From: Patescibacteria group bacterium
GTDB lineage: Bacteria > Patescibacteriota > Minisyncoccia > Phycocordibacterales > SIBU01
Reading direction: 5' to 3'
NCBI GenBank assembly: GCA_040390045.1
Contig: JAZJZC010000005.1
Location: forward strand, 3,360-67,359
DNA length: 64,000 bases
The position numbers and the translations under genes are program-made. How positions within the stretch are numbered: position 1 is the first letter of the stretch; each line of letters starts with the position of its first letter. The notes below the pieces were generated by a model, which searched no databases, had not been told where the DNA came from, and saw only the letters and a program-made list of their open reading frames with translations. This document shows positions 6,018 to 27,441 of the stretch, in pieces.

Positions 6018-6046
6018 GTTAGAACTTGAGAATTTTGTGTTGAAAA

Positions 6047-6080
6047 AGCCCCGCCGCGCCTTGCGCGGCGGGGCTTTTTC
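6047..6080 (+). terminator. rho-independent terminator
   Basis: AAAGCCCCGCCGCGC-CTTG-GCGCGGCGGGGCTTT hairpin followed by a T-run. Confidence 0.7.
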
Positions 6081-6111
6081 CTTTGTTTTACCCTATGCTA
6101 CAATTTATTCC

Positions 6112-6555
6112 ATGAAAGAAAAAATAACCTGCGCCTTTTGTGAAATTCCGGCAATTGCCGAACGGACTGTTATCAAAAACAAGTTGGCTTGGGCATTTCT
6201 AACCAACATCCCGATTACGCCTGGACATGTTTTAATTTCTCCAATTCGTTGTGTTGCAACACTCGACGAGATGACCGACAAAGAAATTGCTGCTATTTTT
6301 GATTTAAGAAAAAAGTTGCTACCCGTGTTAAAAAAATTATTTGGTGCAGAAGGTTTTCATTTCGCCTGGAACGAAGGAAAAGTCGCTAGCCAGTCAGTGC
6401 CACATTTTCATCTTCATGTTGTGTCGAGAAAAAAAGGAGACGAAGGAATTACCGAATTTGAACCACGTAAATTTTTATATCGTCCCGGGAGCCGACAAGA
6501 CAGCCCAGAAAAAGAATTACAAGAAGTGGCTACCATGATTCGCAAAGCCTTTTAG
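6112..6555 (+). CDS. HIT family (histidine triad) nucleotide hydrolase/transferase; the upstream part of the track ORF overlaps the terminator, so the start is at 6112
   Basis: CAFCEI...PGHVLISP...HFHLHVV histidine triad. Confidence 0.85.
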   Translation: MKEKITCAFCEIPAIAERTVIKNKLAWAFLTNIPITPGHVLISPIRCVATLDEMTDKEIAAIFDLRKKLLPVLKKLFGAEGFHFAWNEGKVASQSVPHFHLHVVSRKKGDEGITEFEPRKFLYRPGSRQDSPEKELQEVATMIRKAF

Positions 6556-6558
6556 TCC

Positions 6559-6849
6559 ATGACAGAGAAACAAATTATTTTAAAAAATTTCCAAATAATT
6601 CCCGGAGTGGGGAAGTCGATTGCGGAGGACTTATGGAATTTAGGTTTGCGAAAAGTTTCGGATCTTAAAGGAAAGGATCCCCAGAAACTCTACGACAAGC
6701 TTTGTAAAATAGAGAATGCTCACGTTGATCGCTGTATGCTCTACGTTTTTCGTTGCGCGGTCTATTTCGCTTCAAACACCCGGCATGATCCCGAAGCACT
6801 CAAGTGGTGGAGATGGAAAGATGATATAAAAAAACCGTCCACTTTGTAG
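6559..6849 (+). CDS. helix-hairpin-helix DNA-binding domain protein
   Basis: IPGVGKSIAEDLWNLGLRKVSDL is an HhH motif. Confidence 0.5.
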   Translation: MTEKQIILKNFQIIPGVGKSIAEDLWNLGLRKVSDLKGKDPQKLYDKLCKIENAHVDRCMLYVFRCAVYFASNTRHDPEALKWWRWKDDIKKPSTL

Positions 6850-6877
6850 TAAGGGACGGTTGGGTACGTTTCTTCAG

Positions 6878-8104: not shown

Positions 8105-8147
8105 ATCCTATTCCACGCAAAAGAAAAAGCAAGTCGGAAAGACTTGC

Positions 8148-9161
8148 TTAGAGACGGTTATAAAAGTGTGCCGCTTTGTACGAAGCGCGGATCATTTTTC
8201 GCACTTGAGTTGGTGCCAGAAAGGCGATTGATCCAGGGGACGTGGCCTCGGCGCCTGCCTCAATGACTTTCCACGCATCTTCTCCTGAAAGCAAACCACC
8301 ACCAGCTATGATTGGCTTAGTGATTCCGAGAGACGTCACCGCTCTTACCCACTCGAAAAGAAAGGGTTTGAGAGGCGCTCCTGAAAGGCCGCCAGCAAAA
8401 CTTGGGAAACGTTTGGCCATCGGTGAATCTGCAGGATTGGAAGTTCCAAAAAATTTCTCCCAATTAACCGGCGGCGTTTCCTTTGCCCATGTTGGTTGTT
8501 TCCCAAACGGCAAGGTGTTAAAGACGCAGATGGCATCGCAACGCGGATGTTTGGCGATGCGAAGCATGGAACTCGGGTGAACTTCCGGGCCGAATTTTAC
8601 AGCAACAGGAATGCGTGCCGGTAGGATGTTCTGGGCATCATCAAGAATCGGCAGTACCTCATCGATCAGGTCATTGGGGTCAAGTCCACCATTTGGACAG
8701 GACAGGTTGATTTGAATTGCCCAGTCAACCCAACGTAGATGTTCTCTGGTGTGAGCGAGCTGGGTGAAAATTTCTCTCAACTCAGCTCGCCGCGTCGCTG
8801 GCGTTTTCTCAAGGGACATAACCGATATCATGAACGGCTCAGCCATTGTGTTCCACCCGGCATGTTGTAGAAGAAACTCAAGTCCCGGACCACTGAGACC
8901 AACAGCGTTGAGAGCCAGTTGATGTTTGTGGCTAACTATAATGCACCTTGGCATCAATTCCTTCGGTGTCATTCTATCTTTCGCGAGCGGCATGTTGCCG
9001 GCGCGAGGAAGTAAGGTTGTGGTTTTTGTCACCGGTGTTGAGTAACGGAAACTACAACCAAATGGCCATAGCAGGTGATGGTACCAATACCCTCCGCAAT
9101 CGAAGTTTGTGGCACCTGCAGCTTGGCACACGGGCATGAATTTTATTCCGCGAAGAGTCAT
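8148..9161 (-). CDS. pyrD: dihydroorotate dehydrogenase family (PyrD-like)
   Basis: Contains the NLSCPN signature, an N-terminal GIKFMPVCQAAG and NAVGLSGPG. It lies in a high-GC block. Confidence 0.75.
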   Translation of the reverse strand: MTLRGIKFMPVCQAAGATNFDCGGYWYHHLLWPFGCSFRYSTPVTKTTTLLPRAGNMPLAKDRMTPKELMPRCIIVSHKHQLALNAVGLSGPGLEFLLQHAGWNTMAEPFMISVMSLEKTPATRRAELREIFTQLAHTREHLRWVDWAIQINLSCPNGGLDPNDLIDEVLPILDDAQNILPARIPVAVKFGPEVHPSSMLRIAKHPRCDAICVFNTLPFGKQPTWAKETPPVNWEKFFGTSNPADSPMAKRFPSFAGGLSGAPLKPFLFEWVRAVTSLGITKPIIAGGGLLSGEDAWKVIEAGAEATSPGSIAFLAPTQVRKMIRASYKAAHFYNRL

Positions 9162-9322
9162 AGAAGAATCGTAATGTTAAGGTTCCAATTTTCACTGGGT
9201 TAGTTTTAGCACGGGGTTGTCACGCAGGTCAATTTTAGATTTAGAACTTTCGAAGCTTGCAAATTTTTTGGCTGGGTATACCATTTGAATTGTAATTAAA
9301 AATTATTAACTAATCAAAAAAT

Positions 9323-10474
9323 ATGGAAGGTCAAAAGTCTAACTTTTTTACGTGGGTAGTGGTGGTTGTGGTGATCGCCGTTGGTATTTTTCTTTACTCG
9401 ACATCTTCAAAGGTGCCACAAGAAACTGGTCCGGTTAAAATTGGAGTGATGTTGCCACTTACTGGTGACGCGGCGTCATACGGTGAAGGCGGACGAAATG
9501 TATATCAACTTGCCGTCGAAGAAATAAACGCGGCGGGTGGAGTTGACGGAAGACAAATCGAACTCGTTATCGAAGACAGTAAATGTAACGGCAAGGACGC
9601 TTCAAGCGCTGCGCAGAAACTGATAAATATTGATAAGGTTCAGATAATTCTCGGAGGATTCTGCAGTGGCGAGTCAATTGCCGCTACACCAATCGCAGCG
9701 GCGGGCAAGGTCGCTTTGTTTTCTCCGGGCTCGAGCAGTCCTGACTTGACCAATATCAGCCCTTACTTTTTCAGAAATTATCCAAGCGATGCGTCACAAG
9801 GAAAAGTTTTGGCAGAAACGGCTTACAACAGCAAGCAATGGAAAAAAGTGGCAGTGATTCAAGAGCAAACAGATTACGCACTCGGTGTTTTCAAATCATT
9901 TTCAACTTCCTTTGAAGGTTTTGGTGGAACAATTGTTAAAGAAGAAACCGAAACTGCCAATTCTGATTTTCGTTCAATTCTGACAAAACTCAAAGCGGCT
10001 AACGCTGACGCTCTCTTTATAGATACTCAAACTCCTGCTATGTCTGACCGAATTTTGAAACAAGTTCAGGATTTGGGTTGGAAGCCAGCGATTATTATTA
10101 ACGATGCTACAGCCGGAGATGTCGCACTTGTCATGAAATACAAAAATTTGCTTGAGGGCGCGATAACTGCCGAATTTAGTAGTGATCCAAAAAATCCTAC
10201 CATGAGCAAATTGCTCGCATCGTACAAAACTAAATTTAACGCTGATTTACCATTTCAAGCATACGGTCAGACAGAATACGATGCAGTCTATATGATCCGA
10301 GACGCAGTAAAAACAGTTGGCTACAATGGTGAAAAAATTGCCGCATGGTCAAGAACTGTTAAAGATTGGGAGGGCGCATCTGGTAAAGTGACGATCGGTT
10401 CAAACGGAGACAGGGTTGGTGGACACACGGTAGAAGTGGTGAAGGCCGGTAAAGTGGAGAAATACGTTCAGTAA
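9323..10474 (+). CDS. livK: branched-chain amino acid ABC transporter substrate-binding protein (LivK/LivJ family)
   Basis: N-terminal TM/signal anchor and IGVMLPLTGDAASYGE, a Peripla_BP_6-like sequence. It heads a livHMGF cluster. Confidence 0.85.
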   Translation: MEGQKSNFFTWVVVVVVIAVGIFLYSTSSKVPQETGPVKIGVMLPLTGDAASYGEGGRNVYQLAVEEINAAGGVDGRQIELVIEDSKCNGKDASSAAQKLINIDKVQIILGGFCSGESIAATPIAAAGKVALFSPGSSSPDLTNISPYFFRNYPSDASQGKVLAETAYNSKQWKKVAVIQEQTDYALGVFKSFSTSFEGFGGTIVKEETETANSDFRSILTKLKAANADALFIDTQTPAMSDRILKQVQDLGWKPAIIINDATAGDVALVMKYKNLLEGAITAEFSSDPKNPTMSKLLASYKTKFNADLPFQAYGQTEYDAVYMIRDAVKTVGYNGEKIAAWSRTVKDWEGASGKVTIGSNGDRVGGHTVEVVKAGKVEKYVQ

Positions 10475-10491
10475 AATTTTTAGGTTGGTGA

Positions 10492-10530
10492 AAACCCCCC
10501 GATCTGCCGCGGCAGATCGGGGGGTTTTCG
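10492..10530 (+). terminator. rho-independent terminator or attenuator between livK and livH
   Basis: AAAACCCCCCGATCTGCCG/CGGCAGATCGGGGGGTTTT hairpin. Confidence 0.7.
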
Positions 10531-10590
10531 TTTGAATTTCCCCTCCAAAACTGTTAGAGTTTTAGGGTCTGGTTCCACTCTAAAGATTGT

Positions 10591-11457
10591 ATGGATATTT
10601 TTCCTCAACTTGTCGTCAATAGTTTAATTACCGCTTCAATCTATGCTATTTTAGCTATCGGTTTTAATCTGATTTACAGCACGGCTAAATTTTTTGATCT
10701 CGGATTTGGCGCGACGACTGCCGTGGCTGGGTTTGCAACATTTTTTTTCATTGATCGGCTAGGATTGCCACTCATCATTTCTGCCTTTGGTGGAATCGTG
10801 GCGGCCGGGTTACTGAGTTTTTTTAGCTACAAACTTGTTTACCAGCCTCTGCGAGAGAGGAAGGCGACGAGCACGGTGATGCTGGTTGCCTCACTTGGTA
10901 TTTTCACCGCGGTGCAAGCGGCCATTGCCATTTTGTTTACAAGCCAATTCAGAAGTTTGGCTCGAAATTTTGATTCCGCCGATTCGTTTAAGGTTCTCGG
11001 TGGCGTTTTCAGTTTTACTCAACTCATTCTTTTTATATGCGCGCTGTTGGTTACAGCATTACTTTGGATTTTAATTACAAAAACAAAATTTGGAAAAGCT
11101 TTAACCGCAATTAGCGACGATGAGGAAGTGGCAAAAATTGTTGGTATCAACACTTCAAAAATTCTTGGGTACATGTTTTTTATTGCGGGATGTTTTGGTG
11201 GACTTTGCGGAGTGTTGGTTGGTTTTGATACTGGCATTGAGCCAAACATGGGTTTTGTGATTTTGCTCGGGGCGATTGTGGCGACGATTATAGGAGGCGC
11301 GGGGAACGTTTTTTCGGCGGCGGCGGGTGCACTGCTTCTCGGGTTCATTGAAAATTTTGGCATTTGGAAATTTTCCGGTGAATGGAAGTTTGCCATTTCT
11401 ATGGTCGTTTTGATTTTGTTTTTATTGTTTCGGCCGAAGGGCATTTTTAAACGATAA
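10591..11457 (+). CDS. livH: branched-chain amino acid ABC permease
   Basis: Polytopic membrane protein of 288 aa with LivH-like topology, in an operon. Confidence 0.85.
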   Translation: MDIFPQLVVNSLITASIYAILAIGFNLIYSTAKFFDLGFGATTAVAGFATFFFIDRLGLPLIISAFGGIVAAGLLSFFSYKLVYQPLRERKATSTVMLVASLGIFTAVQAAIAILFTSQFRSLARNFDSADSFKVLGGVFSFTQLILFICALLVTALLWILITKTKFGKALTAISDDEEVAKIVGINTSKILGYMFFIAGCFGGLCGVLVGFDTGIEPNMGFVILLGAIVATIIGGAGNVFSAAAGALLLGFIENFGIWKFSGEWKFAISMVVLILFLLFRPKGIFKR

Positions 11458-13833: not shown

Positions 13834-14781
13834 ATGGAAATTCTTAGAGAATTTAAGGCTCTGGGCAAGCATGATGTCGGGATTGCGGGAGGGAAAGGAG
13901 CATCACTTGGTGAAATGACACAGGCGGGAATTCCGGTGCCACCTGGGTTTGTGTTGCTCTCGAGTGCGTTTGAAAGATTTATTGAAGAAACGGATCTCAA
14001 TGTTGAGATTGATGCGATTTTGCATAAAGTAGATCACAAAGAAATTCACACAGTGGATCGAGCGTCGGAAGAAATTCAGGCTCTGATTCTTGCTGCGAAA
14101 ATGCCGAAGGATATTGAAGCGGAAATTGAAAAATATTTTAAAAAATTAGGAGCGACATTTGTGGCGGTGCGTTCAAGTGCTACAGCGGAAGATTCAGCTT
14201 CGGCGGCGTGGGCAGGACAACTAGATAGTTTTCTCAATACCACCGAAAAAACTTTACTGGAAAATGTAAAGCGCTGTTGGGCCTCGCTTTTTACACCTCG
14301 GGCAATTTTTTATCGATTTGAAAAAGATTTGCATAAAACCAAAATTTCCGTGGCCGTGGTGGTTCAAAAAATGGTGGAATCCGAAATTTCCGGCATCGCT
14401 TTTTCGGTCCATCCGGTGACGGAAGATCGCAATCAACTCATTATCGAAGGAGGATTGGGCCTTGGCGAGGCGATTGTTTCTGGACAGATTACTCCCGATA
14501 GTTATGTCGTCGAAAAAGTCCCGCTAAAAATCCTCGATATTAATGTTTCAACTCAAGAGCGTGGCTTGTTCAAAAAGCTTGGTGGCGGTAACGAGTGGCG
14601 AGACATCTCTACACTTGAAGGTGAGAAACAAAAATTAACCGAAGTTCAAATTCTCGAGCTGTCCGAGCTTATCATTCACATTGAAAATCATTACGGTTTT
14701 CCCTGTGACATCGAATGGGCGTTCGCCGAAGGAAAATTTTACATTGTTCAAAGTCGCCCGATTACAACGCTTAAAAATTAG
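13834..14781 (+). CDS. standalone pyruvate-phosphate-dikinase/PEP-synthase N-terminal ATP-grasp (PPDK_N) nucleotide-binding domain protein
   Basis: GGKGASLGEM, VAVRSSATAEDSASAAWAGQ and HYGFPCDIEWAFAEGKFYIVQSRP match the PpsA/RPH N-terminal ATP-binding domain. The 315-aa ORF ends with a stop and carries no His or PEP-binding domains. Confidence 0.8.
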   Translation: MEILREFKALGKHDVGIAGGKGASLGEMTQAGIPVPPGFVLLSSAFERFIEETDLNVEIDAILHKVDHKEIHTVDRASEEIQALILAAKMPKDIEAEIEKYFKKLGATFVAVRSSATAEDSASAAWAGQLDSFLNTTEKTLLENVKRCWASLFTPRAIFYRFEKDLHKTKISVAVVVQKMVESEISGIAFSVHPVTEDRNQLIIEGGLGLGEAIVSGQITPDSYVVEKVPLKILDINVSTQERGLFKKLGGGNEWRDISTLEGEKQKLTEVQILELSELIIHIENHYGFPCDIEWAFAEGKFYIVQSRPITTLKN

Positions 14782-14830: not shown

Positions 14831-16105
<1,275 letters not shown>

Positions 16106-16182: not shown

Positions 16183-17205
16183 ATGAAAGACAAGAAAACC
16201 AAGAAAAAATCAGAAGATCTCTCTTCTCATAATTCATCATTCCTAATTCATAATTCTGCCCGTCGGCGGGCATTGGTGGTTGGGTCTGTTGCATATGACG
16301 TGATTTTTGGTATTCACGGAAAAATTCAAGACGAGATTTTGATTGAAAACGGTAAACTTGGACGGCAGAATTTGATGTTCACCGCCAAAGATAAGAAACA
16401 TTTTTTTGGTGGAACAGGTGGAAATATTTCATATGGTTTGGGAAAGACTGGCATGAAGCCGTTGCTTTTTTCTGTTGCAGGGAAAGATTTTGAAGGGGAA
16501 TTTGAAAATCATTTAAAAACTTCAGGGGTTGATTTACGGGTGGTTGTAAAGAAAGATGAGTGGACAGCAACTTTTTATGGTATGTCTGACGAAGAGACTC
16601 AGCAAATTGGCGTCTATCAGCCGAACGCCTATGCCGCGATTGATACCACTTCGCTTTCCGCTACAATTTCGGAAAAGGATTTTTCAGAAATAGGAGTAGC
16701 GATTTTTTCCGCTGGTACTGGAAAAAGTATTTTTAAGCAGATGAAAGAGTTGCGAGCGAGACTCGGCAACGAGGTGGTTATTATTTTCGATCCAGGACAG
16801 GTTATTTCAATTTTTTACGATAAAAAACCTTTAGAGGAAACGTTAGCTCTGTCTGACATTTTTATCGGCAATGAAGTGGAGTTTAAACAGATGGAGGGAA
16901 TTTTGGGATATACCTATGAAAAACTTTTACAAAAAGGACTAAAAGCCGTCGTGAAAACGGTCGGAGAAAAGGGAAGTGTTATCTACGAAAAAAATCGTAC
17001 GACTGAGATCAAGGCGGTCAAAGCGAAAAAAGTTGTAGAGACCACAGGTGCGGGCGACGCCTATCGCGCTGGTCTTATCTACGGATTGCTCAATGGTTTA
17101 GATTTAGCGGCTGCCTGTCGCATTGGCGCCAAACTCGGTGCCAAAAATGTGGAAACGGTTGGTGGGCAAGCCTATGAAATTAGCAAAGCTGATTTGAAAA
17201 GCTAA
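16183..17205 (+). CDS. PfkB-family carbohydrate/nucleoside kinase (adenosine-kinase-like)
   Basis: GGTGGN near the N-terminus and the TGAGDAYRAG PfkB signature. Adjacency to ahcY suggests an adenosine kinase. Confidence 0.7.
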   Translation: MKDKKTKKKSEDLSSHNSSFLIHNSARRRALVVGSVAYDVIFGIHGKIQDEILIENGKLGRQNLMFTAKDKKHFFGGTGGNISYGLGKTGMKPLLFSVAGKDFEGEFENHLKTSGVDLRVVVKKDEWTATFYGMSDEETQQIGVYQPNAYAAIDTTSLSATISEKDFSEIGVAIFSAGTGKSIFKQMKELRARLGNEVVIIFDPGQVISIFYDKKPLEETLALSDIFIGNEVEFKQMEGILGYTYEKLLQKGLKAVVKTVGEKGSVIYEKNRTTEIKAVKAKKVVETTGAGDAYRAGLIYGLLNGLDLAAACRIGAKLGAKNVETVGGQAYEISKADLKS

Positions 17206-17233: not shown

Positions 17234-18550
17234 ATGTTAAAAGCCAATCCAACAACACTCGTGGTTTTTGGAGCCACGGGGGATTTGTTTCGAACGAAAT
17301 TGGCGCCGGCCTTGCTTGCGCTTTCCGACAAGAAGGAGTTGCCGGAATTTTTACGTATCGTCGCTTTTTCCCGCCGTCCTTGGGATAACGAAAAATTTCG
17401 AGAATTTATACGAGAGGCCCTTGTGAGCAAAGCTCCAGACATTTCCACTGAGATTCTCGAAGCATTTCTTGATCGTATTTTTTACTGCGAGGGTAATTTT
17501 GACACTTTGGAAAGTTATCAAAAGGTTGCTGAGATGTTTGCGCGTTTTGATGCTGAGGCTGGTGTGTGCACCAACAAACTTTTGTATCTTGCTACTTCAC
17601 CTGCGTTTTACGAAACGATTCTTCAAAAAATTTCTAGTTCTGGTTTGGCAATTCCTTGTGCGCCTGTCGAGGGTCAATCGGAAACTGGCTGGACTCGGGT
17701 GCTTATCGAAAAACCATTTGGACATGATTTAAAAAACGCGGAGCGACTGGACAACTTGCTTGCCCAACTTTTTACCGAAGAACAAATTTTTCGTATTGAT
17801 CATTATTTGGCCAAAGAAACTATGCGTAGCATTTTGCAGTTCCGTTTTTCTAACGGGCCGTTCGAATCAATTTGGAATTCAGAGAACATCGATACTATCG
17901 ATGTAAAATTTTTAGAAAAGGATGGTGTCGGAAGCCGCGGGGAATCATACGATGGGGTGGGTGCTCTGCGAGATGTGGGGCAAAATCATTTACTTCAGAT
18001 GGCGACATTGGTGGCTATGGAAAATCCACGCAAGTTTTCGGTGGAAGCCATTCGGAAAGCTCGCGCCGAGGTGCTCGAAAAATTTAAATTAGCAGAAACC
18101 CCGCCGCCGTTGCGCGCGCAGTACGTGGGTTTTCGTGAGGAGAAAGCTGTGTCTCCTAATTCTCAAACGGAAACTTATTTTCGCTGTACACTTAATTCAA
18201 GTGCACCACGTTGGCGCGACACCGCTTTTGTTTTGGAGGCCGGCAAGGCTACGGGGGAACATAGAGTTGAGATTGTTATTCATTTTAAAAAGTCACATGA
18301 CTTGGTTTGTCCCGTCGACGCTGTGTGTAGCGCGGGAGATAACACAGTCAAATTTGATATCCTATCTTCTTCAAACAAACGTTCCGATGCGTATGAACGA
18401 GTACTGCTCGATGCAATTATGGGAGATCAAACACTTTTCATATCAACAGCAGAAGTCATTGCCGAATGGAAACTTGTCGAAGAAATTTTCAAAAAGTGGG
18501 AGAAGACTGAATTGGTGCACTATGCGAAAGGATCGATGCCAAAAATTTAA
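17234..18550 (+). CDS. zwf: glucose-6-phosphate 1-dehydrogenase
   Basis: VVFGATGDL, RIDHYLAKE and the EKPFGHDL motifs. Confidence 0.9.
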   Translation: MLKANPTTLVVFGATGDLFRTKLAPALLALSDKKELPEFLRIVAFSRRPWDNEKFREFIREALVSKAPDISTEILEAFLDRIFYCEGNFDTLESYQKVAEMFARFDAEAGVCTNKLLYLATSPAFYETILQKISSSGLAIPCAPVEGQSETGWTRVLIEKPFGHDLKNAERLDNLLAQLFTEEQIFRIDHYLAKETMRSILQFRFSNGPFESIWNSENIDTIDVKFLEKDGVGSRGESYDGVGALRDVGQNHLLQMATLVAMENPRKFSVEAIRKARAEVLEKFKLAETPPPLRAQYVGFREEKAVSPNSQTETYFRCTLNSSAPRWRDTAFVLEAGKATGEHRVEIVIHFKKSHDLVCPVDAVCSAGDNTVKFDILSSSNKRSDAYERVLLDAIMGDQTLFISTAEVIAEWKLVEEIFKKWEKTELVHYAKGSMPKI

Positions 18551-18783: not shown

Positions 18784-19368
18784 CTATTCCAGCAGTCTGA
18801 TTTTCAGTGCCGTGGTACCATCGTCGACAATTTCGAACTTGCGGAATCCATTGCCTGCGAGTGTTGACTGATCTAGAATTGTTTGGATTCCAATTGTGTC
18901 GGTGACCCCCAATGCAACTGCAACAAGCCCGGCGAGGATTGGTCGGTGAGTAAAGACCAGTGCTCTATCCGCGCTCACAGGTGAATTGTTGTAAATAACT
19001 GCCATCGAACATATCGCCTGGCCTTGCCATGTATGGACATCATCCCGTTCGTGGCCAGGGTAAGGAATTATGGTACCGTCAGCATCAAGGTTGCCGTAAT
19101 GGCCGAGCTCCTCGATACACGTGACTTTCTTGATGTTGAGACGTTTGACGACGGTACACATGGAACCACACGCTCGATCCATTAGTGAACAGAAGGTTAC
19201 TTGATAGGGTCCCATTGCTCTGAGACGTGGGACCAGAGCAAGCATGTAGGCCTTCCCACTCATTGTCATTGGCGGATCAGCTGCGAGTGTCACCTCGCAT
19301 CCAGCAACCCCAGTAAGTTTTGGCCCATGGGGAACCACGACAAGGATCATACTATTTCTGACAAGCAT
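18784..19368 (-). CDS. hypothetical protein, possibly SixA-like histidine-phosphatase-superfamily member with a variant catalytic motif
   Basis: LVVVPHG at the N-terminus, where SixA has RHG, and VFTHRPILAGLVAVALG resembling the SixA SHLPLVGYLVAEL segment. GC is higher than in flanking genes. Confidence 0.3.
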   Translation of the reverse strand: MLVRNSMILVVVPHGPKLTGVAGCEVTLAADPPMTMSGKAYMLALVPRLRAMGPYQVTFCSLMDRACGSMCTVVKRLNIKKVTCIEELGHYGNLDADGTIIPYPGHERDDVHTWQGQAICSMAVIYNNSPVSADRALVFTHRPILAGLVAVALGVTDTIGIQTILDQSTLAGNGFRKFEIVDDGTTALKIRLLE

Positions 19369-19474: not shown

Positions 19475-20779
19475 ATGCCCCCCGAAAAAATTAAAGAAAA
19501 TGTTTTGAAATATAACTGGGAACACTGGATAGACAGGGATCAAGGTGCCTTTTTTTGTTCTCTTGAAAAAGGCGGTGATAGTAGGTTTTTCATGCAAAAA
19601 GTCGGTGTAGATACTGAGTTGCCCGCATCAGTTTTTCAAAATGGAGCTTGGTATGCGAGTGAAGAAGTATGGGAAATTTTTAGTAAGGAGTTGCATCAGT
19701 GGCTAGACAACAGTGGTGATATTTTTCAGGTGGTAAAAAGCTGTGAAGAATATTTGCAACAGCACAAAAAAACCATTAACCAACTCATTTCGTCAAAGAT
19801 TTCTCCGAAGGATAAGTTGATAAAAATGTATGATATTTTTACGCAGATGTTTAGTTATATATGGCTTGCGCATGGTTTTGAGCAGGTATTTGTGAAAAAA
19901 ATGCGTCTTGAAGTTCCAAGATACATCTCCGGCGATATTGAAAAGATTATTGGCGACATTAGCTTTCCGATAAAGAAAAATGCCCATTATTATTTTGAGC
20001 AGGCTCTTCGGAGTGAGATGCCGCTTGAAAAAGTTCATGAAAAATTTGCTTGGATAAAAGCTCGAGGTGGGTTTGCAGATGGTTTTACCACCAAAGAACT
20101 GACACTCGAAAGAAAAAGATTGGAAAAATTTGAACCTGTGGCTCAATTTGCTTATCCTGTGGTGCCGCCAGAATTAAAAGAACTTGTTTCGATATCCCAA
20201 GAGTTGGTTTATTTTAGAACTTTGCGCACTGATGTTTTGTATGAATTGATGTGGCAAGCCCGACCTGTTCTCACTGAAATCGCTGAGCACTTTGGTTTAA
20301 CATTTGCCGAGTTGCGTGACTACAGCGCACTCGATCTTATGGAAGGTAAAATTCAAAAGTATGAATACGGCAATTTTTCAGTTGCTTCATTTGGAGAAGA
20401 GTTCGCGATATTTCACCAGCCCATTATCCTAGAGAAAAAACAGGTTGCTGTAACAGAGCTAAAAGGCGCTGTTGCTTTTAAGGGTCTTGTGCAAGGAAAG
20501 GTGAAGGTGGTTATGGTGGCACATAATATTGGTAAGGTTAATGAGGGTGATATTTTGGTTGCTCCAACCACAGCTCCTTCATACATCATGGGTATGCAAA
20601 AAGCGGCCGCTTTTGTGACAGATGAGGGTGGAATTACTTCGCATACGGCCATTATCGCTCGTGAAATGAAGAAGCCTTGTATAATTGGCACTAAGATTGC
20701 CACTAAAGTCTTGAAAGACGAGGATTTAGTTGAGGTTGACGCGAACGCTGGTGTGGTGAAATTACTCAAAAAGGCATAA
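19475..20779 (+). CDS. PEP-utilizing-enzyme mobile (phosphohistidine swivel) domain protein with a 330-aa N-terminal domain of unknown function, paralog 1
   Basis: C-terminus AFKGLVQGKVKVV...GDILVAPTTAPSY...DEGGITSHTAIIAREMKKPCIIGT matches the PEP-utilizers His-domain. The N-terminus is related to paralog 2 (NWEHW vs NWENR). Confidence 0.75.
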   Translation: MPPEKIKENVLKYNWEHWIDRDQGAFFCSLEKGGDSRFFMQKVGVDTELPASVFQNGAWYASEEVWEIFSKELHQWLDNSGDIFQVVKSCEEYLQQHKKTINQLISSKISPKDKLIKMYDIFTQMFSYIWLAHGFEQVFVKKMRLEVPRYISGDIEKIIGDISFPIKKNAHYYFEQALRSEMPLEKVHEKFAWIKARGGFADGFTTKELTLERKRLEKFEPVAQFAYPVVPPELKELVSISQELVYFRTLRTDVLYELMWQARPVLTEIAEHFGLTFAELRDYSALDLMEGKIQKYEYGNFSVASFGEEFAIFHQPIILEKKQVAVTELKGAVAFKGLVQGKVKVVMVAHNIGKVNEGDILVAPTTAPSYIMGMQKAAAFVTDEGGITSHTAIIAREMKKPCIIGTKIATKVLKDEDLVEVDANAGVVKLLKKA

Positions 20780-20789
20780 GATAGTGGGG

Positions 20790-21695
20790 ATGAAAAAAAT
20801 AAAAATTGGATACGTTGGTTTGGGGAAAATGGGATTAAACATGGTTTTGCGAATGCAGGAGAAGGGCTACAGCGTTGTGGCGTATAACCGAAGTGAGGCA
20901 CCCAGAATTGAAGCAAAAAAAGCGGGAATTCCTGTCGCTCAGTCATTGCAAGAGTTAGTCTCGAAACTTTCAAAACCACGGACGGTGTGGCTTATGGTTT
21001 CCAATTCGGCTGTTGATGAAGTGCTCACTGAAGTTTCAAAATATTTGGAACGAGGTGATACGGTAATTGATGGCGGTAACTCCTTTTACAAAGATTCGAT
21101 TCGACGAGCGGGTGAACTTAAGAAAAAGGGAATTGAATTTCTTGACGCAGGAGTTTCAGGAGGACCTAAGGGCGCGCGAGAAGGAGCCTGCATTATGGTT
21201 GGCGGAAAAAGAGAAGTGTACGAAAAATACGAAAAGCTTTTCAAGGATTTAGTTTCGCCTAAGGCTTTGGGACTTATGGGCAAAGCTGGCGCGGGGCATT
21301 TTGTAAAAATGGTTCACAATGGCATTGAGTACGGCATGATGCAGGCCATCGCTGAAGGGTTTGCCATTATGAAAAAATCTGATTTTAAATTGGATTTGGA
21401 ACAGGTAGCGGATTTGTATAATCATAAAAGTGTGGTTGAATCGAGACTTATCGGCTGGTTGGCGAGCGGTTTTAAGAAATACGGAACTGATCTCGGAGAG
21501 ATCTCTAGTACCGTGGGACACCTGGGAGAAGGCGAGTGGACGGTTCAAGCTGGCAAGGAACTCGGTATTCCGACACCAGTGATTGAGGCCTCATTTCAAT
21601 TTCGTGTAGCATCTGCAAAAAACCCAAGTTACACTGGCAAGGTGCTTTCGACTTTACGAAATCAATTCGGGGGACACGGCGCAGGCAAAAACTAG
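20790..21695 (+). CDS. gnd: 6-phosphogluconate dehydrogenase, decarboxylating, short form
   Basis: IGYVGLGKMG Rossmann motif and HFVKMVHNGIEYG. Confidence 0.85.
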   Translation: MKKIKIGYVGLGKMGLNMVLRMQEKGYSVVAYNRSEAPRIEAKKAGIPVAQSLQELVSKLSKPRTVWLMVSNSAVDEVLTEVSKYLERGDTVIDGGNSFYKDSIRRAGELKKKGIEFLDAGVSGGPKGAREGACIMVGGKREVYEKYEKLFKDLVSPKALGLMGKAGAGHFVKMVHNGIEYGMMQAIAEGFAIMKKSDFKLDLEQVADLYNHKSVVESRLIGWLASGFKKYGTDLGEISSTVGHLGEGEWTVQAGKELGIPTPVIEASFQFRVASAKNPSYTGKVLSTLRNQFGGHGAGKN

Positions 21696-21819: not shown

Positions 21820-22446
21820 ATGAAAATTTTCGACATCTCGGTACCACTCAACGAAAAAACCGTTATCTATCCGGGTAACGTACCGCTCGAGATTTCTATG
21901 CATCACGAAATGCCGGCACACACGACGCATCTTTCGAAGATTGTTATGGGCTCACACACCGGAACGCATGTGGATGCGCCGAGTCACGCAGTGGCGGGTG
22001 CTTCATCACTCGATCAGATCCCACTCGGGGTTTTTGTTGGTCCATGCAAGGTGATTGATTGCACTCAGAGTGTAGGTTCGGTAAAGACTGCTGACCTAGG
22101 TAAGCATTCTATTGTTAAAGGAGATCGAATTTTGATTAAAACCAAAAATTCCGCGCGAGGTTTTGAAAAATTTTACGATGATTACGTCTATCTCGATGGT
22201 GACGCCGCAGAATATCTTTCTCATTTAGAAATCACACTTTTTGGTATCGATTATTTTTCAGTTAAGCAACGAGGAAGTAAAGATCAACGTCCGCACACGG
22301 CATTACTTTCTCACAATATTCCCATTATCGAAGGAATCGATCTCTGCCAAGTGCCCGCTGGCAATTACACACTTGTTTGTCTGCCGCTTAAATTTACCGG
22401 GATTGAGGGTGGTCCAGCGAGAGTGATTCTCGTAGATAATTTGTAA
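21820..22446 (+). CDS. cyclase family protein (kynurenine-formamidase-like)
   Basis: GSHTGTHVDAPSH metal-binding motif of the Cyclase family. Confidence 0.75.
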   Translation: MKIFDISVPLNEKTVIYPGNVPLEISMHHEMPAHTTHLSKIVMGSHTGTHVDAPSHAVAGASSLDQIPLGVFVGPCKVIDCTQSVGSVKTADLGKHSIVKGDRILIKTKNSARGFEKFYDDYVYLDGDAAEYLSHLEITLFGIDYFSVKQRGSKDQRPHTALLSHNIPIIEGIDLCQVPAGNYTLVCLPLKFTGIEGGPARVILVDNL

Positions 22447-22460
22447 ATAAAAGAACATTT

Positions 22461-22496
22461 TTTTGCTCCACTTTAGTTAACTAAAGTGGAGCAAAA
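22461..22496 (+). terminator. hairpin terminator containing copy 2 of the ACTTTAGTTAACTAAAGT palindromic core
   Basis: TTTTGCTCCACTTTAGTT/AACTAAAGTGGAGCAAAA. Confidence 0.6.
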
Positions 22497-22512: not shown

Positions 22513-23895
22513 ATGAGAGTATCAAAAGAAGAAAAAGAAATAGTTGAGAAAATTAAATCTAGAAACTGGGAAAACCGAGTTCAGAGGCCCGGATTTTTTC
22601 AGTCGAAGCAAATTGTGTGTGAGGCACTTGGGCAGAAAACATGGCTTACAAAACATATCGCTGTTTCCGATAAAAATAGTTTTTGGGTTAGGAATTCCGC
22701 GATTTATGACCAAGATTTTACAGATAATTTAAACAAGGTGATTTTTCCGAATGCTTTTAAGGAAGATCCACATTGGCCAATAGAGGTATTTAAAAATATT
22801 GAACAATCTGCTAAGAAAAAAGATGAATTGGTTGGGAAATTTACTGAAACGGATTGGAGTAGGACGAGCACAGATGAAAAGATTTTTTGGTTGAATCGGT
22901 ACGTCGAAATTTTGCTGGAAATTCAAAAATACTATGCTTTTACAGTACCGTTGACAAATTATTGCGAGAAAATTTTAAAGGAGCGTAACCCGTCATTACT
23001 TGAGTATGCGGTACAGTACAAACCGCTTGATGTTGATCGTATGAATGAATCGCTCATCGAAATCAAAAGAGCAAAAAACGAGAATAGTCAAAATTTAGAT
23101 AATCTTTTCTTAAAACATCTAGCGCAGTTTGGGTGGATTAAATCGAATTATAATATTCTTGAGCCGTATACTAAGGAAGATGTTTTGAGTGAAATAAAAC
23201 ATGATATTTATGTCTTTCAACCGAGAGAAGCGCCGGAAAATCCTTACAAACATTTTGTAATTGGACTTCAGGTTGGTATCTACTTGCGTAATCGAGCCAA
23301 AGAATTATCCCAACAAATTTGGTTTGCATATGAAAACTTGGCTAAACAGTTGGCGACGGATGTATCATTGTCACGAGAGGATTTTTTGCAATTAAGCTAT
23401 AGAGAGGTCGAGGCCTCGCTGAACCAAGGCCGACTCACAATTAGCGGGGAAGAAATAGAAAGAAGGCATACAGGATTTATTCTCGGTGTTTTTGAAGGTA
23501 GAGATTTGTTAATAGCAGGAAAACTTGTTGATGAGTTGTTTGATTTTTTTAATCCTAAAAATTTTACGAATGTAAAGGAAATTTCTGGTACCGTTGCTTG
23601 CAAGGGTGTTGTGAGAGGAAAAGTGAAAGTGGTTATGACCATGGCTACAATCAATAAGCTGGAAGAAGGCGATATTTTGGTTACAAGCATGACTACGCCT
23701 GATTTTGTGGTTGCGATGAAAAGAGCGGCTGGGATTGTAACCGATGAGGGTGGACTCTCTTGTCATGCCGCGATAGTTTCGCGGGAACTTAGAAAGCCCT
23801 GTATAATTGGGACAAAGATTGCTACTAGGGTTTTAAAAGATGGGAATCTTGTTGAAGTTGATGCAGTAGTTGGGATTGTTAGATTAATTAAATGA
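22513..23895 (+). CDS. PEP-utilizing-enzyme mobile domain protein, paralog 2
   Basis: C-terminus CKGVVRGKVKVV...GDILVTSMTTPDF...DEGGLSCHAAIVSRELRKPCIIGT. Confidence 0.75.
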   Translation: MRVSKEEKEIVEKIKSRNWENRVQRPGFFQSKQIVCEALGQKTWLTKHIAVSDKNSFWVRNSAIYDQDFTDNLNKVIFPNAFKEDPHWPIEVFKNIEQSAKKKDELVGKFTETDWSRTSTDEKIFWLNRYVEILLEIQKYYAFTVPLTNYCEKILKERNPSLLEYAVQYKPLDVDRMNESLIEIKRAKNENSQNLDNLFLKHLAQFGWIKSNYNILEPYTKEDVLSEIKHDIYVFQPREAPENPYKHFVIGLQVGIYLRNRAKELSQQIWFAYENLAKQLATDVSLSREDFLQLSYREVEASLNQGRLTISGEEIERRHTGFILGVFEGRDLLIAGKLVDELFDFFNPKNFTNVKEISGTVACKGVVRGKVKVVMTMATINKLEEGDILVTSMTTPDFVVAMKRAAGIVTDEGGLSCHAAIVSRELRKPCIIGTKIATRVLKDGNLVEVDAVVGIVRLIK

Positions 23896-23896
23896 T

Positions 23897-24955
23897 ATGG
23901 ATATAGAAAAATTTAAACATGCAGACTGGACGAAAATTTGGGCGGGATCATGGAGTTTTTTGACATGTTTTCATTTTGGCAATGATTACACAAAAGAAAT
24001 TCACTTCGGAAGTCATCCCGTTTTCAGTCAGAGTATTATTTTTGTAAAAGAAGGCAAAAGTAATGGGTGGGCAACTCAAACAGACAGGGACCGTTTAGGT
24101 AATTTTCTTGCAACGGAGGTTAAAAATAATCCCGATAAAGCGTTAGAAGTTTGTTCTGAATTAAAGAAAGAAGTTGATTCGATTATAAATTTTTTGGATA
24201 CAAACGTTGCAGCTCAACCAAGTTTGGAAATTTACAATGATTTTTGGAACCATGTACTTCTGTACTACACACCGCATATTAATGTTAAATATGTTGTTGA
24301 TTATTTGGAACCAGAACTTTTGCAGAAGTTGTTACCACATCTTGAAGAAGCTCGTTTGTATGCCGAACCAGTTTTCAAGAGAACCGAAGATTTTATGATC
24401 TCAACAGCGCAAGCTATTGGTCAAAAAATTAATCTACCATATGAGCTTGTGCTTTGCACGACGAAGTCTGAGATGGACGAATATTTTAAAGGCGGCATTT
24501 TTCCGAAAAGGAACGTTCTTGAAGAGCGAAATAAGGGAGCGGTAATTTTATTTGATGAAACAGACTCGATGGTCATTACTGGTGCTGATGTACAGAAGGT
24601 TGAGGACATTGTTACTAAACAAACTGCAACCAATGTGATTAAGGGAATGGTTGCCTATAAAGGTAAGGTGACTGGCCGCGCTGTGATTATTCTCGATCCA
24701 ACAAAAGCCAATCATTTTGTTGAGGGAGATATTTTAGTGACAGGAATGACGCGACCCGAATATTTATCAATTATGGAAAAGGCAGCAGCCATTGTTACTG
24801 ACGCAGGAGGTATTCTTTCGCATGCCGCCATTTCTGCTCGAGAATTGAAAAAACCTTGTGTCATTGGAACACAGGTTGCGACAAAAGTTTTGAAGGACGG
24901 GGACTTGGTGGAAGTGGATGCTGATAGTGGAATAATTCGGTTATTAAAAGCCTAG
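23897..24955 (+). CDS. PEP-utilizing-enzyme mobile domain protein, paralog 3
   Basis: C-terminus DAGGILSHAAISARELKKPCVIGT. The N-terminus is homologous to paralog 4 (KHADWTKIW vs KHTDWVKVW, and ARLYAEPVF vs ARLYCEPAY). Confidence 0.75.
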   Translation: MDIEKFKHADWTKIWAGSWSFLTCFHFGNDYTKEIHFGSHPVFSQSIIFVKEGKSNGWATQTDRDRLGNFLATEVKNNPDKALEVCSELKKEVDSIINFLDTNVAAQPSLEIYNDFWNHVLLYYTPHINVKYVVDYLEPELLQKLLPHLEEARLYAEPVFKRTEDFMISTAQAIGQKINLPYELVLCTTKSEMDEYFKGGIFPKRNVLEERNKGAVILFDETDSMVITGADVQKVEDIVTKQTATNVIKGMVAYKGKVTGRAVIILDPTKANHFVEGDILVTGMTRPEYLSIMEKAAAIVTDAGGILSHAAISARELKKPCVIGTQVATKVLKDGDLVEVDADSGIIRLLKA

Positions 24956-24971
24956 TTGTTATTTTAGTTTT

Positions 24972-25859
24972 ATGAATATTAACGAAATGCCACCTAAGCA
25001 AGAGAGTCAGGAAATTATTTCCAAGATACAATTACATTTTTTCAGACACGGTGAACAGTTTAAGGATCCAGCAAAATCTGACCCTGAATACGAACTTTCT
25101 GCGGCTGGACGAGAGCAGGGAATGAATAAAGCGAAGTCAATTGAGGAAAGACCGAACCTCCGGCAGACCATGGCTTTTGGGAGCCCGAGAGCACGGTCAC
25201 AACAGACTGCCTCTTTTGCGATGGCTGGCCAGGCGCTCGATAGTGTTGTTGGTGACGAATCGCTGAAAGAACTTAAGGCAAAACTGGATGGAGATATTTC
25301 CTACGGATCTAAGGTAATGAGTGATCCTCGTCTCGATTTTACTATGGATAAGGATACCCCATTTGGAGCAAAAGCATTTGAAGCTTTTTCAAAGAAAGAA
25401 TATATGAAGTTTTTAGTTAATTCAAGTGATGCATTGGCGAAGGAAGTAAAAGACTCGAAAGGGTCAACATACTCAAGACAAGCTGGAGATGTGGCTCAAG
25501 TAGTAAAGAAATATCTTTCAGTCTCTAGCCGATGGAAGGAACTTGTCCAAAGTGGTAAATATCAAGATCCCAAACTCGAGCGATTTTTAGGTTCTCATGG
25601 TGGTGTAACCGAGTCTTTTTTGTTTAAGGTGATTGAAAAAACTAAAGGAATAGAGGAGCGTGACAGACTTCTAGCTCTTATTCCAAACATTTTTGATTTT
25701 ACGGAAGGTTTTGATGTCGAACTTGTAACCACTGACAGAAATAGCGAACCAGCAGTTAGGATTATTTACAAGAAGGAATTGCCTGGCGGCAAAAAGTTTA
25801 AATTTAACGAAGTTGTTCCGATTGAAGTTATTGAGGAAATTGTAAAAGAAGGAAAATAA
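24972..25859 (+). CDS. histidine phosphatase superfamily (phosphoglycerate-mutase-like) protein
   Basis: N-terminal FFRHGE (RHG motif) and the downstream LGSHGG second catalytic His motif. Confidence 0.55.
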   Translation: MNINEMPPKQESQEIISKIQLHFFRHGEQFKDPAKSDPEYELSAAGREQGMNKAKSIEERPNLRQTMAFGSPRARSQQTASFAMAGQALDSVVGDESLKELKAKLDGDISYGSKVMSDPRLDFTMDKDTPFGAKAFEAFSKKEYMKFLVNSSDALAKEVKDSKGSTYSRQAGDVAQVVKKYLSVSSRWKELVQSGKYQDPKLERFLGSHGGVTESFLFKVIEKTKGIEERDRLLALIPNIFDFTEGFDVELVTTDRNSEPAVRIIYKKELPGGKKFKFNEVVPIEVIEEIVKEGK

Positions 25860-25865
25860 AATTTT

Positions 25866-26942
25866 GTGGAACTTTCTGATTTCAAAAAACACACTGATTG
25901 GGTAAAAGTTTGGTCTTCTAGAGGAAGTCTGGCTTTCGATTCTCATTTTGGAGATCAGTGTACAAAGCAAAGTGATATTTCAAGTAAGCCATTTTTTGCT
26001 AAGACGGTGACGTTTTACAAAAATGGCATTTCTCATGGGTGGGTACGTGGTGAAGATAAAGATGATTTAGGTGACAGACTAAGCTCTTTGGCGAGGGAAG
26101 ATAGTACGTTTGTAGAAAAAATATCAAATGGTTTGATTTCTCATACAGACAGGGTAGCTTCTTTTATAGACTCTCAAAGTGTAAAAAATTTTGGACTTGT
26201 CGAATTTAATGAATTTTGGAAGGTAGTCCAAGATTATTTTTTATACCATGTGAGTGTTAAGTATATTGTTGATCGTCTTTCGATTGAAGATCTAGATAAA
26301 TTTTTACCAACACTTGAAAAGGCAAGGTTGTATTGCGAACCCGCATATAGAAATATCGAAAATTATATAGAACTTCTCGCTGAGAGAGTGGTCACGGAAA
26401 CTTCATACACCAAAGAAATGATTTTGGCCCTAACCAAGGAAGAATTCAGATCGTATTTTCAAGGTAATTTATTGCCGGATAAAGCCCAGCTAAAAAATCG
26501 GCATGAAAGTTCTGTACTTATTTTCGATTCCAAAGAGAGTCAGGTTTTTACTGGTATGGCTGTAGATGAAATTGAAAAAATCGTTTCATCTTTTTTGGCA
26601 CCCGATCTTATAAAAGGTCAAGTTGCTTTTGTGGGGAAGGTTATTGGTAAAGTAAAAGTGATCTCTAATCCATTGAAGGACGGGGGAAAGTTTGACGATG
26701 GAGATATCTTAGTAACCGGGATGACTCGACCAGAGTTTTTACCGCTCATGAAAAAAGCTGCAGCGTTTGTAACTGATGCGGGTGGAATCCTTTCTCATGT
26801 TGCTATTACGGCGCGTGAGTTGAAAAAGCCCTGTGTTATTAGTACCCAAGTTGCTAGCAAGGTTTTAAAGGATGGGGATTTAGTAGAGGTAGATGCCAAT
26901 TTAGGGATTGTAAAGATTTTAAAGAGAAACGGAGACAAATAA
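25866..26942 (+). CDS. PEP-utilizing-enzyme mobile domain protein, paralog 4 (GTG start)
   Basis: C-terminus DAGGILSHVAITARELKKPCVIST. Confidence 0.75.
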   Translation: MELSDFKKHTDWVKVWSSRGSLAFDSHFGDQCTKQSDISSKPFFAKTVTFYKNGISHGWVRGEDKDDLGDRLSSLAREDSTFVEKISNGLISHTDRVASFIDSQSVKNFGLVEFNEFWKVVQDYFLYHVSVKYIVDRLSIEDLDKFLPTLEKARLYCEPAYRNIENYIELLAERVVTETSYTKEMILALTKEEFRSYFQGNLLPDKAQLKNRHESSVLIFDSKESQVFTGMAVDEIEKIVSSFLAPDLIKGQVAFVGKVIGKVKVISNPLKDGGKFDDGDILVTGMTRPEFLPLMKKAAAFVTDAGGILSHVAITARELKKPCVISTQVASKVLKDGDLVEVDANLGIVKILKRNGDK

Positions 26943-26965: not shown

Positions 26966-27361
26966 ATGATTACGCCAATTATTGAGGGAAAAGTCATAAA
27001 AGGCGACGGATATGGCCGGAAGCTGGGGTTTCCGACAGCGAATTTGGATAGGAAACAGTTTTTGAAAGACAAAATGGATTTGCCGCTCGGGGTCTACGCC
27101 GGTGTGGTTTTTTTGCATCATCTCAAAAAAATTCTAAAAACGGCGATTGTGATTGGTCCGCTCGACAAGAAAAAAACTCCGAAAATCGAAGCGCATATTT
27201 TAGGTTTCAAGGGGAAGTTGTATGGAAAAAAGTTGACGCTCTATCCCTATAAATTTCTCAGACCCTTTGAAACTTTTAAAACCGAAAAACTTTTAATTGC
27301 TCAGATTAAAAAAGATGTGAAGCGGGTTGAAAAGGAGGTGGCGGCTCCGCCGTTATTTTAG
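26966..27361 (+). CDS. monofunctional riboflavin kinase (flavokinase domain only)
   Basis: GDGYGRKLGFPTANL motif of the RibF C-terminal domain. At 131 aa there is no FAD-synthetase domain. Confidence 0.75.
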   Translation: MITPIIEGKVIKGDGYGRKLGFPTANLDRKQFLKDKMDLPLGVYAGVVFLHHLKKILKTAIVIGPLDKKKTPKIEAHILGFKGKLYGKKLTLYPYKFLRPFETFKTEKLLIAQIKKDVKRVEKEVAAPPLF

Positions 27362-27441
27362 TCTGCTAAAGTAACGGCGGACGTAGGTTTTTTTTGTTTG
27401 GTATTGTACAATGTTGTGATTATTATATTTAAAATGCATTC

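Follow-up and report, generated by a model that had tools for sequence, protein, structure and literature searches.

We report on a group of genes in a 64,000-nucleotide (nt) stretch of DNA, hereafter the window, from a Patescibacteria group bacterium (assembly GCA_040390045.1, contig JAZJZC010000005.1, positions 3,360 to 67,359 of the forward strand; coordinates below are those of the window unless another locus is named). The genes encode four paralogous proteins with a swivel domain of the phosphoenolpyruvate (PEP)-utilizers family, here P1 to P4, a divergent protein of the histidine-phosphatase superfamily, here the phosphatase, and a stand-alone ATP-grasp (PPDK_N) protein, and they are candidate components of a split ATP-dependent dikinase. 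P2 (460 amino acids, aa; 22513-23895), P3 (352 aa; 23897-24955), the phosphatase (295 aa; 24972-25859) and P4 (358 aa; 25866-26942) follow one another on the plus strand. The TGA stop codon of P2 ends at 23895, 1 nt ahead of the P3 ATG at 23897; the TAG stop of P3 ends at 24955, 16 nt ahead of the phosphatase ATG at 24972; and the TAA stop of the phosphatase ends at 25859, 6 nt ahead of the GTG start of P4 at 25866. The tight junctions at 23895/23897 and 25859/25866 that a first-pass annotation of this DNA had pointed out are thus read in the sequence as 1 and 6 nt. P1 (434 aa; 19475-20779) and the ATP-grasp protein (315 aa; 13834-14781) are encoded upstream, also on the plus strand.

Between a cyclase gene and P2 lies a palindromic hairpin with a perfect 16-bp stem (22461-22496) that scores as terminator-like on both strands, and a terminator-like hairpin on the plus strand, likewise with a 16-bp stem, lies at the end of a riboflavin kinase gene (27346-27381); both come from a consensus scan only. 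Since these two strong hairpins enclose P2, P3, the phosphatase, P4 and the riboflavin kinase gene, the sequence suggests that the five genes form one transcription unit, with the first hairpin as the probable upstream boundary of the P2-P3-phosphatase-P4 unit and the second as its probable 3' end. The riboflavin kinase gene (131 aa; 26966-27361, plus strand; PF01687, 94.7 bits) begins 23 nt 3' of P4 and is probably co-transcribed with it, and is not a conserved member of the system. A riboflavin link, raised by this gene and by RosC among the fold matches of the phosphatase, was rejected as a conserved partnership; the kinase gene adjoins only in the closest relative (locus L007).

The PF00391 swivel domain (78-93 bits) is the sole Pfam domain in all four paralogs and is located at their extreme C-terminus, with scores of 92.8, 85.3, 82.9 and 78.3 bits for P1 to P4, respectively. 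Each domain has a TDxGGxxxH motif with the catalytic His: TDEGGITSH in P1 (His390, nt 20642-20644), TDEGGLSCH in P2 (His418, nt 23764-23766) and TDAGGILSH in both P3 (His309, nt 24821-24823) and P4 (His311, nt 26796-26798). In agreement with the first-pass annotation, P3 and P4 are homologous over their full length; 157 of 353 positions are identical (44%, with 65% positives; E value 2e-109), which is far beyond chance, and the GTG start of P4 is supported because this alignment begins at residue 1. Similarity between P1 and P2, and between P2 and P3, is confined to the C-terminal ~110-146 residues, and the swivel domain is the best-conserved part of the proteins (~60% identity between paralogs). 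PEP synthase and pyruvate phosphate dikinase (PPDK) give the top sequence scores for the swivel domains (E values down to 1e-35) as well as for the ATP-grasp protein. However, no Pfam match to the PEP/pyruvate TIM-barrel domain (PEP-utilizers_C) was obtained for any of the paralogs or their scanned neighbours, and the swivel is C-terminal and not central as in those enzymes; lacking this barrel, P1-P4 are not PEP synthases or PPDKs. P1 keeps the Thr-Ser-His of PEP synthase, and the corresponding residues are Ser-Cys-His in P2 and Leu-Ser-His in P3 and P4. The Thr of Thr-Ser-His is a regulatory phosphorylation site in PEP synthase and PPDK. A role in defence was also considered and was rejected, since the PADLOC anti-phage defence models gave no matches save a marginal one of 17.5 bits for P1.

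The AlphaFold2 model of P3 (predicted local distance difference test, pLDDT, 95.5; alignment of 65 sequences) has a mainly helical N-domain of ~240 residues followed by the swivel. Its top matches in the PDB, as detected with Foldseek, are the rifampin phosphotransferase (RPH) structures 5fbu and 5fbt (~270 columns, 21-22% identity, E ~1e-12), with an alignment that reaches beyond the ~110-aa swivel, whereas the structures of PPDK, Enzyme I and pyruvate kinase match P3 in the swivel only. RPH-Lm, for which the RPH mechanism was described (PDB 5FBS/5FBT/5FBU; PMC4844700), is hence the best and the only extended structural match of P3, and shares with it the order of a substrate domain and then a C-terminal swivel. 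Moreover, the P3-family profile aligns with RPH residues 701-866, and the alignments of PigC, RedH and RPH-type NCBIfam models also run upstream of the swivel (RIF_Ptrans_rph aligned to residues 283-458 of P2). P3 and P4 are short forms with the same type of N-domain; P1 has a ~320-aa N-domain of another type ('cluster 4'). Comparison with hhalign linked the short N-domain to those of the long-form paralogs at 96-97% probability and showed that the latter contain an internal segment of ~130-150 residues that is absent from the short forms; the 'WQDERK'-type motif of the long forms was placed inside this segment by both MAFFT and hhalign. Among 65 homologues the invariant residues of the P3 N-domain are Y123, H127, K131, R153, E157, E164, E192 and R211.

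Because an RPH-like N-domain precedes the swivel according to Foldseek, profile, NCBIfam and hhalign comparisons, P1-P4 are acceptor/substrate halves of RPH-type split dikinases. The earlier view of the genes flanking the phosphatase as coding for phospho-His carriers therefore stands as far as the intact swivel His is concerned, but the proteins are not bare carriers. They differ from RPH in being encoded by separate genes, in having a substrate domain of about half the size, and in the residue at position -2 from the His, which is Leu, Thr or Ser here and Met in RPH.

When the PPDK_N protein that heads a swivel array in a related locus (L003) was used in a tblastn search, an 80%-identical gene, which the first-pass annotation had not connected with the trio, was found in the window at 13834-14781. 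Its product is an ATP-grasp domain alone (PF01326, 323 bits, covering the whole protein), with no other Pfam domain, and among NCBIfam models it scores highest with the N-termini of PEP synthase (329 bits) and of rifamycin phosphotransferase (286 bits). The window thus has one PPDK_N gene versus four swivel genes. In related loci PPDK_N adjoins swivel arrays (L003, L008, L020, L033 and L043) or is fused to swivel domains. Single stop-free open reading frames (ORFs) with PPDK_N and three swivel domains, confirmed with Pfam, are present in L013 (2107-7359; 1751 aa) and L016 (5075-9961; 1629 aa), in which one PPDK_N is followed by three modules of N-domain plus swivel; these are dikinase 'polyproteins' with three phospho-His carriers. 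Fusion is to two swivel domains in L017 and L025, and to one in L014, L019, L021, L026 and L029, and some of the fused relatives (L019, L026 and others) display the full RPH order of ATP-grasp, substrate domain and swivel. The ATP-grasp and swivel proteins are functionally linked, given that they are fused in relatives, and the product of 13834-14781 is likely the common ATP-binding, His-charging partner of all four swivel proteins.

Two-component dikinases have been described, i.e. HpeHI, CreHI and PpsAB (phenylphosphate synthase), in which the beta-phosphate of ATP presented by the ATP-grasp protein is transferred to the swivel His, and a small molecule is then phosphorylated by the acceptor (PMC12167813). 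The window proteins resemble these in having a separate ATP-grasp protein and acceptors with a C-terminal swivel, a T/SxxGGxxxH motif and an N-terminal part related to the rifampin-binding domain, here with partial coverage and at roughly half the size; by analogy, the His~P intermediate would carry the beta-phosphate of ATP, as in HpeHI-type enzymes. In contrast to HpeHI, there is one ATP-grasp gene for four acceptor genes (nine or more in relatives), the N-domains have a length of 240-350 aa compared with ~470 aligned residues in HpeH, the ATP-grasp gene of the window is not side by side with the acceptors (in many related loci it is adjacent or fused), and relatives fuse ATP-grasp to up to three acceptor modules. 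The host also differs, being a Patescibacterium with a reduced genome, and no aromatic-catabolism genes are present among the annotated genes of the window.

In the phosphatase, the RHGE and SHGG signatures correspond to residues 25-28 (nt 25044-25055) and 208-211 (nt 25593-25604), respectively. The PF00300 (His_Phos_1) match scores 24.4 bits against a gathering cut-off of 21.7 and spans residues 21-102 only; sequence methods recognise only the first ~80 residues, the best E value of the profile against the PDB being 1.7e-5 (PhoE), and a single-sequence phmmer search gave no PDB match. The AlphaFold2 model (59 sequences; pLDDT 93.7) has a histidine-phosphatase fold and is matched by Foldseek, at a probability of 1.0 and with TM-scores of only 0.37-0.45, to PhoE, dPGM/BPGM, TIGAR, GpgP, RosC, CobC, SixA and branch-2 acid phosphatases. 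Among the 59 homologues H26 and R75 do not vary, R25 and H209 are conserved in at least 90%, and the Gly of RHG varies (G, A, S or D). R75 is part of GSPRxRAxQT and H209 of GSHGG, and in the model RHG follows the strand formed by residues 17-25. Residues D153, R204 and E214 are additional invariants of the family. Hence, the assignment of the 295-aa protein to this superfamily from its RHGE and SHGG signatures is confirmed by PF00300, by the modelled fold and by the conserved RH/R/H set.

As in members of branch 1 (PhoE, dPGM, TIGAR, GpgP, RosC, CobC and SixA), strand beta1 ends with RHG, alpha2 begins with the second Arg and the second His comes after a central strand of an alpha/beta core. 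Unlike in these, sequence similarity to the superfamily is limited to the first ~80 residues, the position expected for the canonical Glu is hydrophobic, the cap is enlarged and there is a C-terminal meander plus helix. Specifically, the family has an insertion of ~30 residues after alpha2, a large helical cap, which in the model is an ~85-residue helical insertion between beta3 and beta4 and amounts to a full-size active-site cap, and a C-terminal three-stranded beta-meander followed by a helix. A profile search of 24972-25859 gave no match to any dPGM equivalog model, and the only NCBIfam matches were to acid phosphatase (19.7 bits) and RNase H/acid phosphatase (16.4 bits) models, both far below cut-off. 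The protein is thus not a conventional phosphoglycerate mutase, and sequence and model together place it in the histidine-phosphatase superfamily.

An exhaustive profile search covering 1.84 billion representatives returned 256 clusters (50% identity) at E<=1e-30 and 564 at E<=1e-3. The named matches are from Patescibacteria (Taylorbacteria, Paceibacterota and others) and from a few bins with doubtful taxon labels, and judged by sequence the phosphatase is a member of an unnamed clade of Patescibacteria. Among the loci with other labels, L012, L024, L032 and L035 are assigned to Gammaproteobacteria or Flavobacteriaceae, and two close P3-type homologues (P0120 and P0179) to Nanoarchaeota; these may be mis-binned contigs of metagenome-assembled genomes or represent real spread beyond Patescibacteria. 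Three distant homologues that were looked up are all in arrays of PEP-utilizers genes: one with at least six swivel genes and then the phosphatase gene, one with PPDK_N, three swivel genes, a HAD hydrolase gene and the phosphatase gene, and one with five swivel genes and two phosphatase paralogs.

For co-conservation, one genome per GTDB species was used, which gave 35 loci whose ORFs were scanned with hidden Markov models (HMMs). A same-strand swivel gene is directly beside the phosphatase gene in 28 of the 35 loci, a swivel module is present somewhere in the available flank in 31, PPDK_N in 19, and swivel genes are found on both sides of the phosphatase gene in 8. Of the seven loci without such adjacency, L034 and L039 have no upstream flank (contig edge), L040 is fragmented, and L027 and L035 have a swivel gene nearby that does not adjoin; only in L015 and L030 are swivel genes absent from both flanks, and the neighbours there are unrelated (PGA_cap, CCA-adding enzyme, DHH, TsaD and glycosyltransferases). 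As a genome of ~1000 genes contains a handful of swivel genes, we infer that chance would produce adjacency in about 1% of loci. These data bear on whether the gene simply encodes an ordinary housekeeping phosphatase or phosphoglycerate mutase that came to lie between duplicated genes by accident. The generic nature of the PF00300 assignment would allow this, but neither the lack of any dPGM or other equivalog match nor the lack of a PDB match with the single sequence fits with it, and with adjacency in 28 of 35 species-level loci from several Patescibacteria lineages it is most improbable and effectively refuted.

Other observations were made at these loci. The non-array phosphatase copy in L015 is ~700 nt downstream of the PGA_cap gene. 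A canonical His_Phos_1 gene of ~220 aa is located on the opposite strand beside three arrays (L003, 9000-9653, minus; L022, 6855-7556, minus; L027, 1911-2606, minus). In L040, labelled Peribacteria, the PPDK_N, swivel and phosphatase matches (5201-10645) are split over several short ORFs under translation table 11, a possible result of pseudogenes, assembly errors or an alternative genetic code.

The arrays comprise one to nine swivel modules and usually one phosphatase gene, occasionally two, and clustering of 100 swivel modules gave 37 N-domain types. Modules of the P3/P4 type are the most enriched directly beside the phosphatase gene (9 of 13), compared with 4 of 16 and 4 of 12 for the two largest long-form types. 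This preference is partial and not exclusive, and the idea that the phosphatase pairs strictly with a single type of N-domain was therefore rejected. Bracketing by two paralogs of the same type is specific to this lineage, and the general rule is adjacency to some swivel gene; co-conservation of the trio as such, which the first-pass annotation had proposed to look for, accordingly holds for the phosphatase and a swivel neighbour and not for the symmetrical arrangement. Furthermore, strict dependence is contradicted by a P3-type gene on its own in L042 and a four-gene array with PPDK_N and no phosphatase gene in L043, and because arrays exist without it the phosphatase is, as far as sequence can tell, a conserved but dispensable accessory.

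The short-form preference raises the question of whether P3 and P4 might dock on the phosphatase-fold protein and phosphorylate its His26, so that it would act as a phosphotransferase or mutase on a substrate of its own in an ATP-driven relay reminiscent of the phosphotransferase system (PTS). Histidine-phosphatase-fold enzymes such as dPGM and BPGM use a phospho-His intermediate, the short forms are without the large internal segment of the long-form substrate domain, and there is a weak alignment between the P3-family profile (150-345) and the helical region of Enzyme I that binds HPr (27-225). This alignment, however, is driven by the swivel domain, P3-type genes occur without a phosphatase gene, and the invariant polar residues of the P3 N-domain are typical of an active site belonging to P3 itself. 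We consider such a relay distinctly unlikely.

Although the ATP-grasp and swivel modules fuse freely with one another, the phosphatase was never found fused to either. Its fusions are occasional and C-terminal, to FGase (L010, 3564-5540, and P0186), to peptidase M20 (P0303) and to a transglutaminase-like core (P0022). FGase is the N-formylglutamate amidohydrolase family, and all the fusion partners are amide-bond hydrolases; the gene of the M20 fusion P0303 (L044, 373-2643) adjoins a divergent P1-type gene. The recurrent amidohydrolase fusions suggest an amino-acid- or peptide-like, possibly N-phosphorylated, substrate. PEP synthase/PPDK homologues that form N-P bonds include TalE, which N-phosphorylates a dipeptide, and the L-glutamine kinase Cj1418 (PMC6482885); their activities fit with these fusions, a lead that comes from likeness of described function. 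In the Hpe pathway a two-component dikinase is paired with a phosphatase, HpeD, and the phosphate is removed after an intervening reaction (PMC9618137); HpeD is a HAD enzyme, unlike the histidine-phosphatase-fold protein described here. A HAD hydrolase gene is present inside the L003 array (5872-6471). On account of the full-size cap, the amidohydrolase fusions, the HAD gene in an array, the pairing with a phosphatase in the Hpe pathway and the N-P-forming dikinase relatives, we lean moderately towards a small-molecule substrate for the phosphatase, possibly amino-acid- or peptide-like.

The first-pass annotation had left the choice between a regulatory phosphatase acting on the carrier genes' products and one acting on a substrate. 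In the former case the phosphatase would reset the system, stripping phosphate from the swivel phospho-His in the manner of SixA, or from a nearby Ser/Thr (the Ser at -1 in ILSH), and so switch modules off. The superfamily does include enzymes that dephosphorylate phospho-His in proteins, such as SixA (with ArcB-HPt and NPr as targets) and PGAM5, and a SixA-type structure (2rfl) is among the fold matches, as number 46 in the Foldseek results. A target common to all modules would also agree with one phosphatase gene, occasionally two, serving one to nine modules and adjoining many types of N-domain, with the swivel being the most conserved part of the modules, and with the apparent absence of the canonical general acid. 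SixA, however, is a capless core of ~160 aa with an open site, whereas the phosphatase has 295 aa, a big helical cap and an extra C-terminal domain; many arrays have no phosphatase gene (L043, and the solitary gene in L042); the fusion partners are amidohydrolases, with swivel or ATP-grasp modules never among them; and an unregulated His~P phosphatase would turn the system into an ATPase. Taken together, the evidence leans to a small-molecule substrate, and we regard a reset function as rather unlikely.

Our preferred interpretation, to which we give somewhat less than even credence, is that the P2-P3-phosphatase-P4 operon, with the trio as its core, constitutes the acceptor side of a split, multi-acceptor, ATP-dependent dikinase and that the phosphatase hydrolyses a phosphorylated small molecule. 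The dikinase mechanism itself, as predicted from sequence, is well supported by homology. The ATP-grasp protein would bind ATP and the swivel His would attack the beta-phosphate, giving AMP, Pi and enzyme-His~P. The charged swivel would then swing back to its own N-domain and phosphorylate the small molecule bound there, and the differing N-domains of P1, P2 and P3/P4 would imply differing substrates. His26 of the phosphatase, together with R25, R75 and H209, would serve to dephosphorylate a small molecule, which could be what the neighbouring short-form dikinases produce or an intermediate further down the pathway, following a logic of phosphorylation, transformation and dephosphorylation as in the HpeHI/HpeD pathway.

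Several points weigh against this interpretation. The ATP-grasp gene is not adjacent to the acceptor genes in the window but lies upstream of them, 4.7 kb from P1 and 9 kb from P3. If a dikinase and a phosphatase acted on the same product with no step in between, the cycle would be futile, and no conserved enzyme for such a step was found. The short-form N-domain is about half the size of the rifampin-binding domain and lacks the segment of ~130-150 aa, and may therefore hold no small-molecule pocket; a mapping of RPH R666, E667 and K670 onto P3 (R153/E157) was attempted and is not established, as the profile alignment begins only at RPH residue 701. The phosphatase adjoins many types of N-domain, as would be expected of a partner shared by all modules. 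The position expected for the general-acid Glu (RLxE) is hydrophobic, F123 in the phosphatase and F, L or Y in homologues; the HMM alignment instead pairs the Glu of PhoE with the near-invariant E100 in an inserted helix, and the invariant D153 and E214 are alternative candidates.

A broader possibility is an ATP-powered, PTS-like phosphorelay that branches: one ATP-grasp charger would serve four to at least nine interchangeable His-swivel modules, which would trap or activate scavenged metabolites (possibly amino acids or peptides via N-P bonds), with the phosphatase-fold protein as a terminal phospho-acceptor (through His26) or as a phosphoramidase working with Zn-amidohydrolases. We judge this unlikely, and return to it below only for what it would imply.

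The genes of the ATP-grasp protein and the swivel proteins are separated by ahcY (14846-16105), a pfkB-family kinase gene (16183-17205) and zwf (17234-18550). Interspersed among the swivel genes in the region are zwf, gnd (20784-21695) and a cyclase/arylformamidase-family gene (21820-22446), of which zwf and gnd belong to the oxidative pentose-phosphate pathway. The gnd and cyclase genes occur in a like arrangement only in the closest relative, L007, and zwf had no match in the fetched loci. Also in this region, an ORF on the minus strand (18784-19368; 194 aa) gives a sub-threshold His_Phos_1 match of 17.6 bits, and reads PHG at the position of RHG; it is followed by a strong terminator-like hairpin (18758-18732), and a promoter-like site is located at 19445-19416. 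The ORF showed no similarity to the second His_Phos_1 gene of L003, no PDB match and no homologue in the fetched loci, and may be a degenerate second phosphatase-fold gene, or no gene at all.

This setting has a bearing on whether the swivel proteins could instead be non-enzymatic regulators, whose charging by the ATP-grasp protein would report ATP/AMP status and which would act on protein partners, with the phosphatase as the off-switch. There is a precedent in VadK of M. tuberculosis, an autophosphorylating kinase derived from PPDK for which regulatory function is reported (PMC13400623), and the swivel genes of the window are interspersed with genes of central metabolism (zwf, gnd, pfkB and ahcY). 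These genes are, however, not conserved neighbours; the divergence of the N-domains, of which a genome has four to at least nine (37 clusters among 100 modules), and a best structural match to a domain that binds small molecules are both better explained by diversification of substrates. We therefore find a purely regulatory role very unlikely, and retain the multi-acceptor dikinase as the preferred interpretation.

Patescibacteria have genomes of ~1 Mb with very few recognisable kinases and transporters. In this context, five genes of the window go to split dikinase components, in relatives up to ten or more, and some relatives build polyproteins of 1600-1750 aa with one ATP-grasp and three swivel modules. 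The characterised relatives, i.e. RPH, HpeHI, PpsAB, TalE and Cj1418, each phosphorylate one small molecule. Searches of the literature on Patescibacteria and swivel or PEP-utilizing proteins found no description of such a system, and none of the layout with one charger and many acceptors was found in the searchable literature. The system also widens the architectural range of the PEP-synthase-type dikinase family. The unnamed phosphatase clade tied to these arrays offers a handle, in the form of a kinase/phosphatase pair, an operon and fusion partners, on the substrates and on the physiology of the candidate phyla radiation (CPR). If the modules do form a branching phosphorelay with a single ATP-grasp charger, this would represent a metabolic strategy that is lineage-wide in ultra-small symbiotic bacteria and had so far gone unrecognised.

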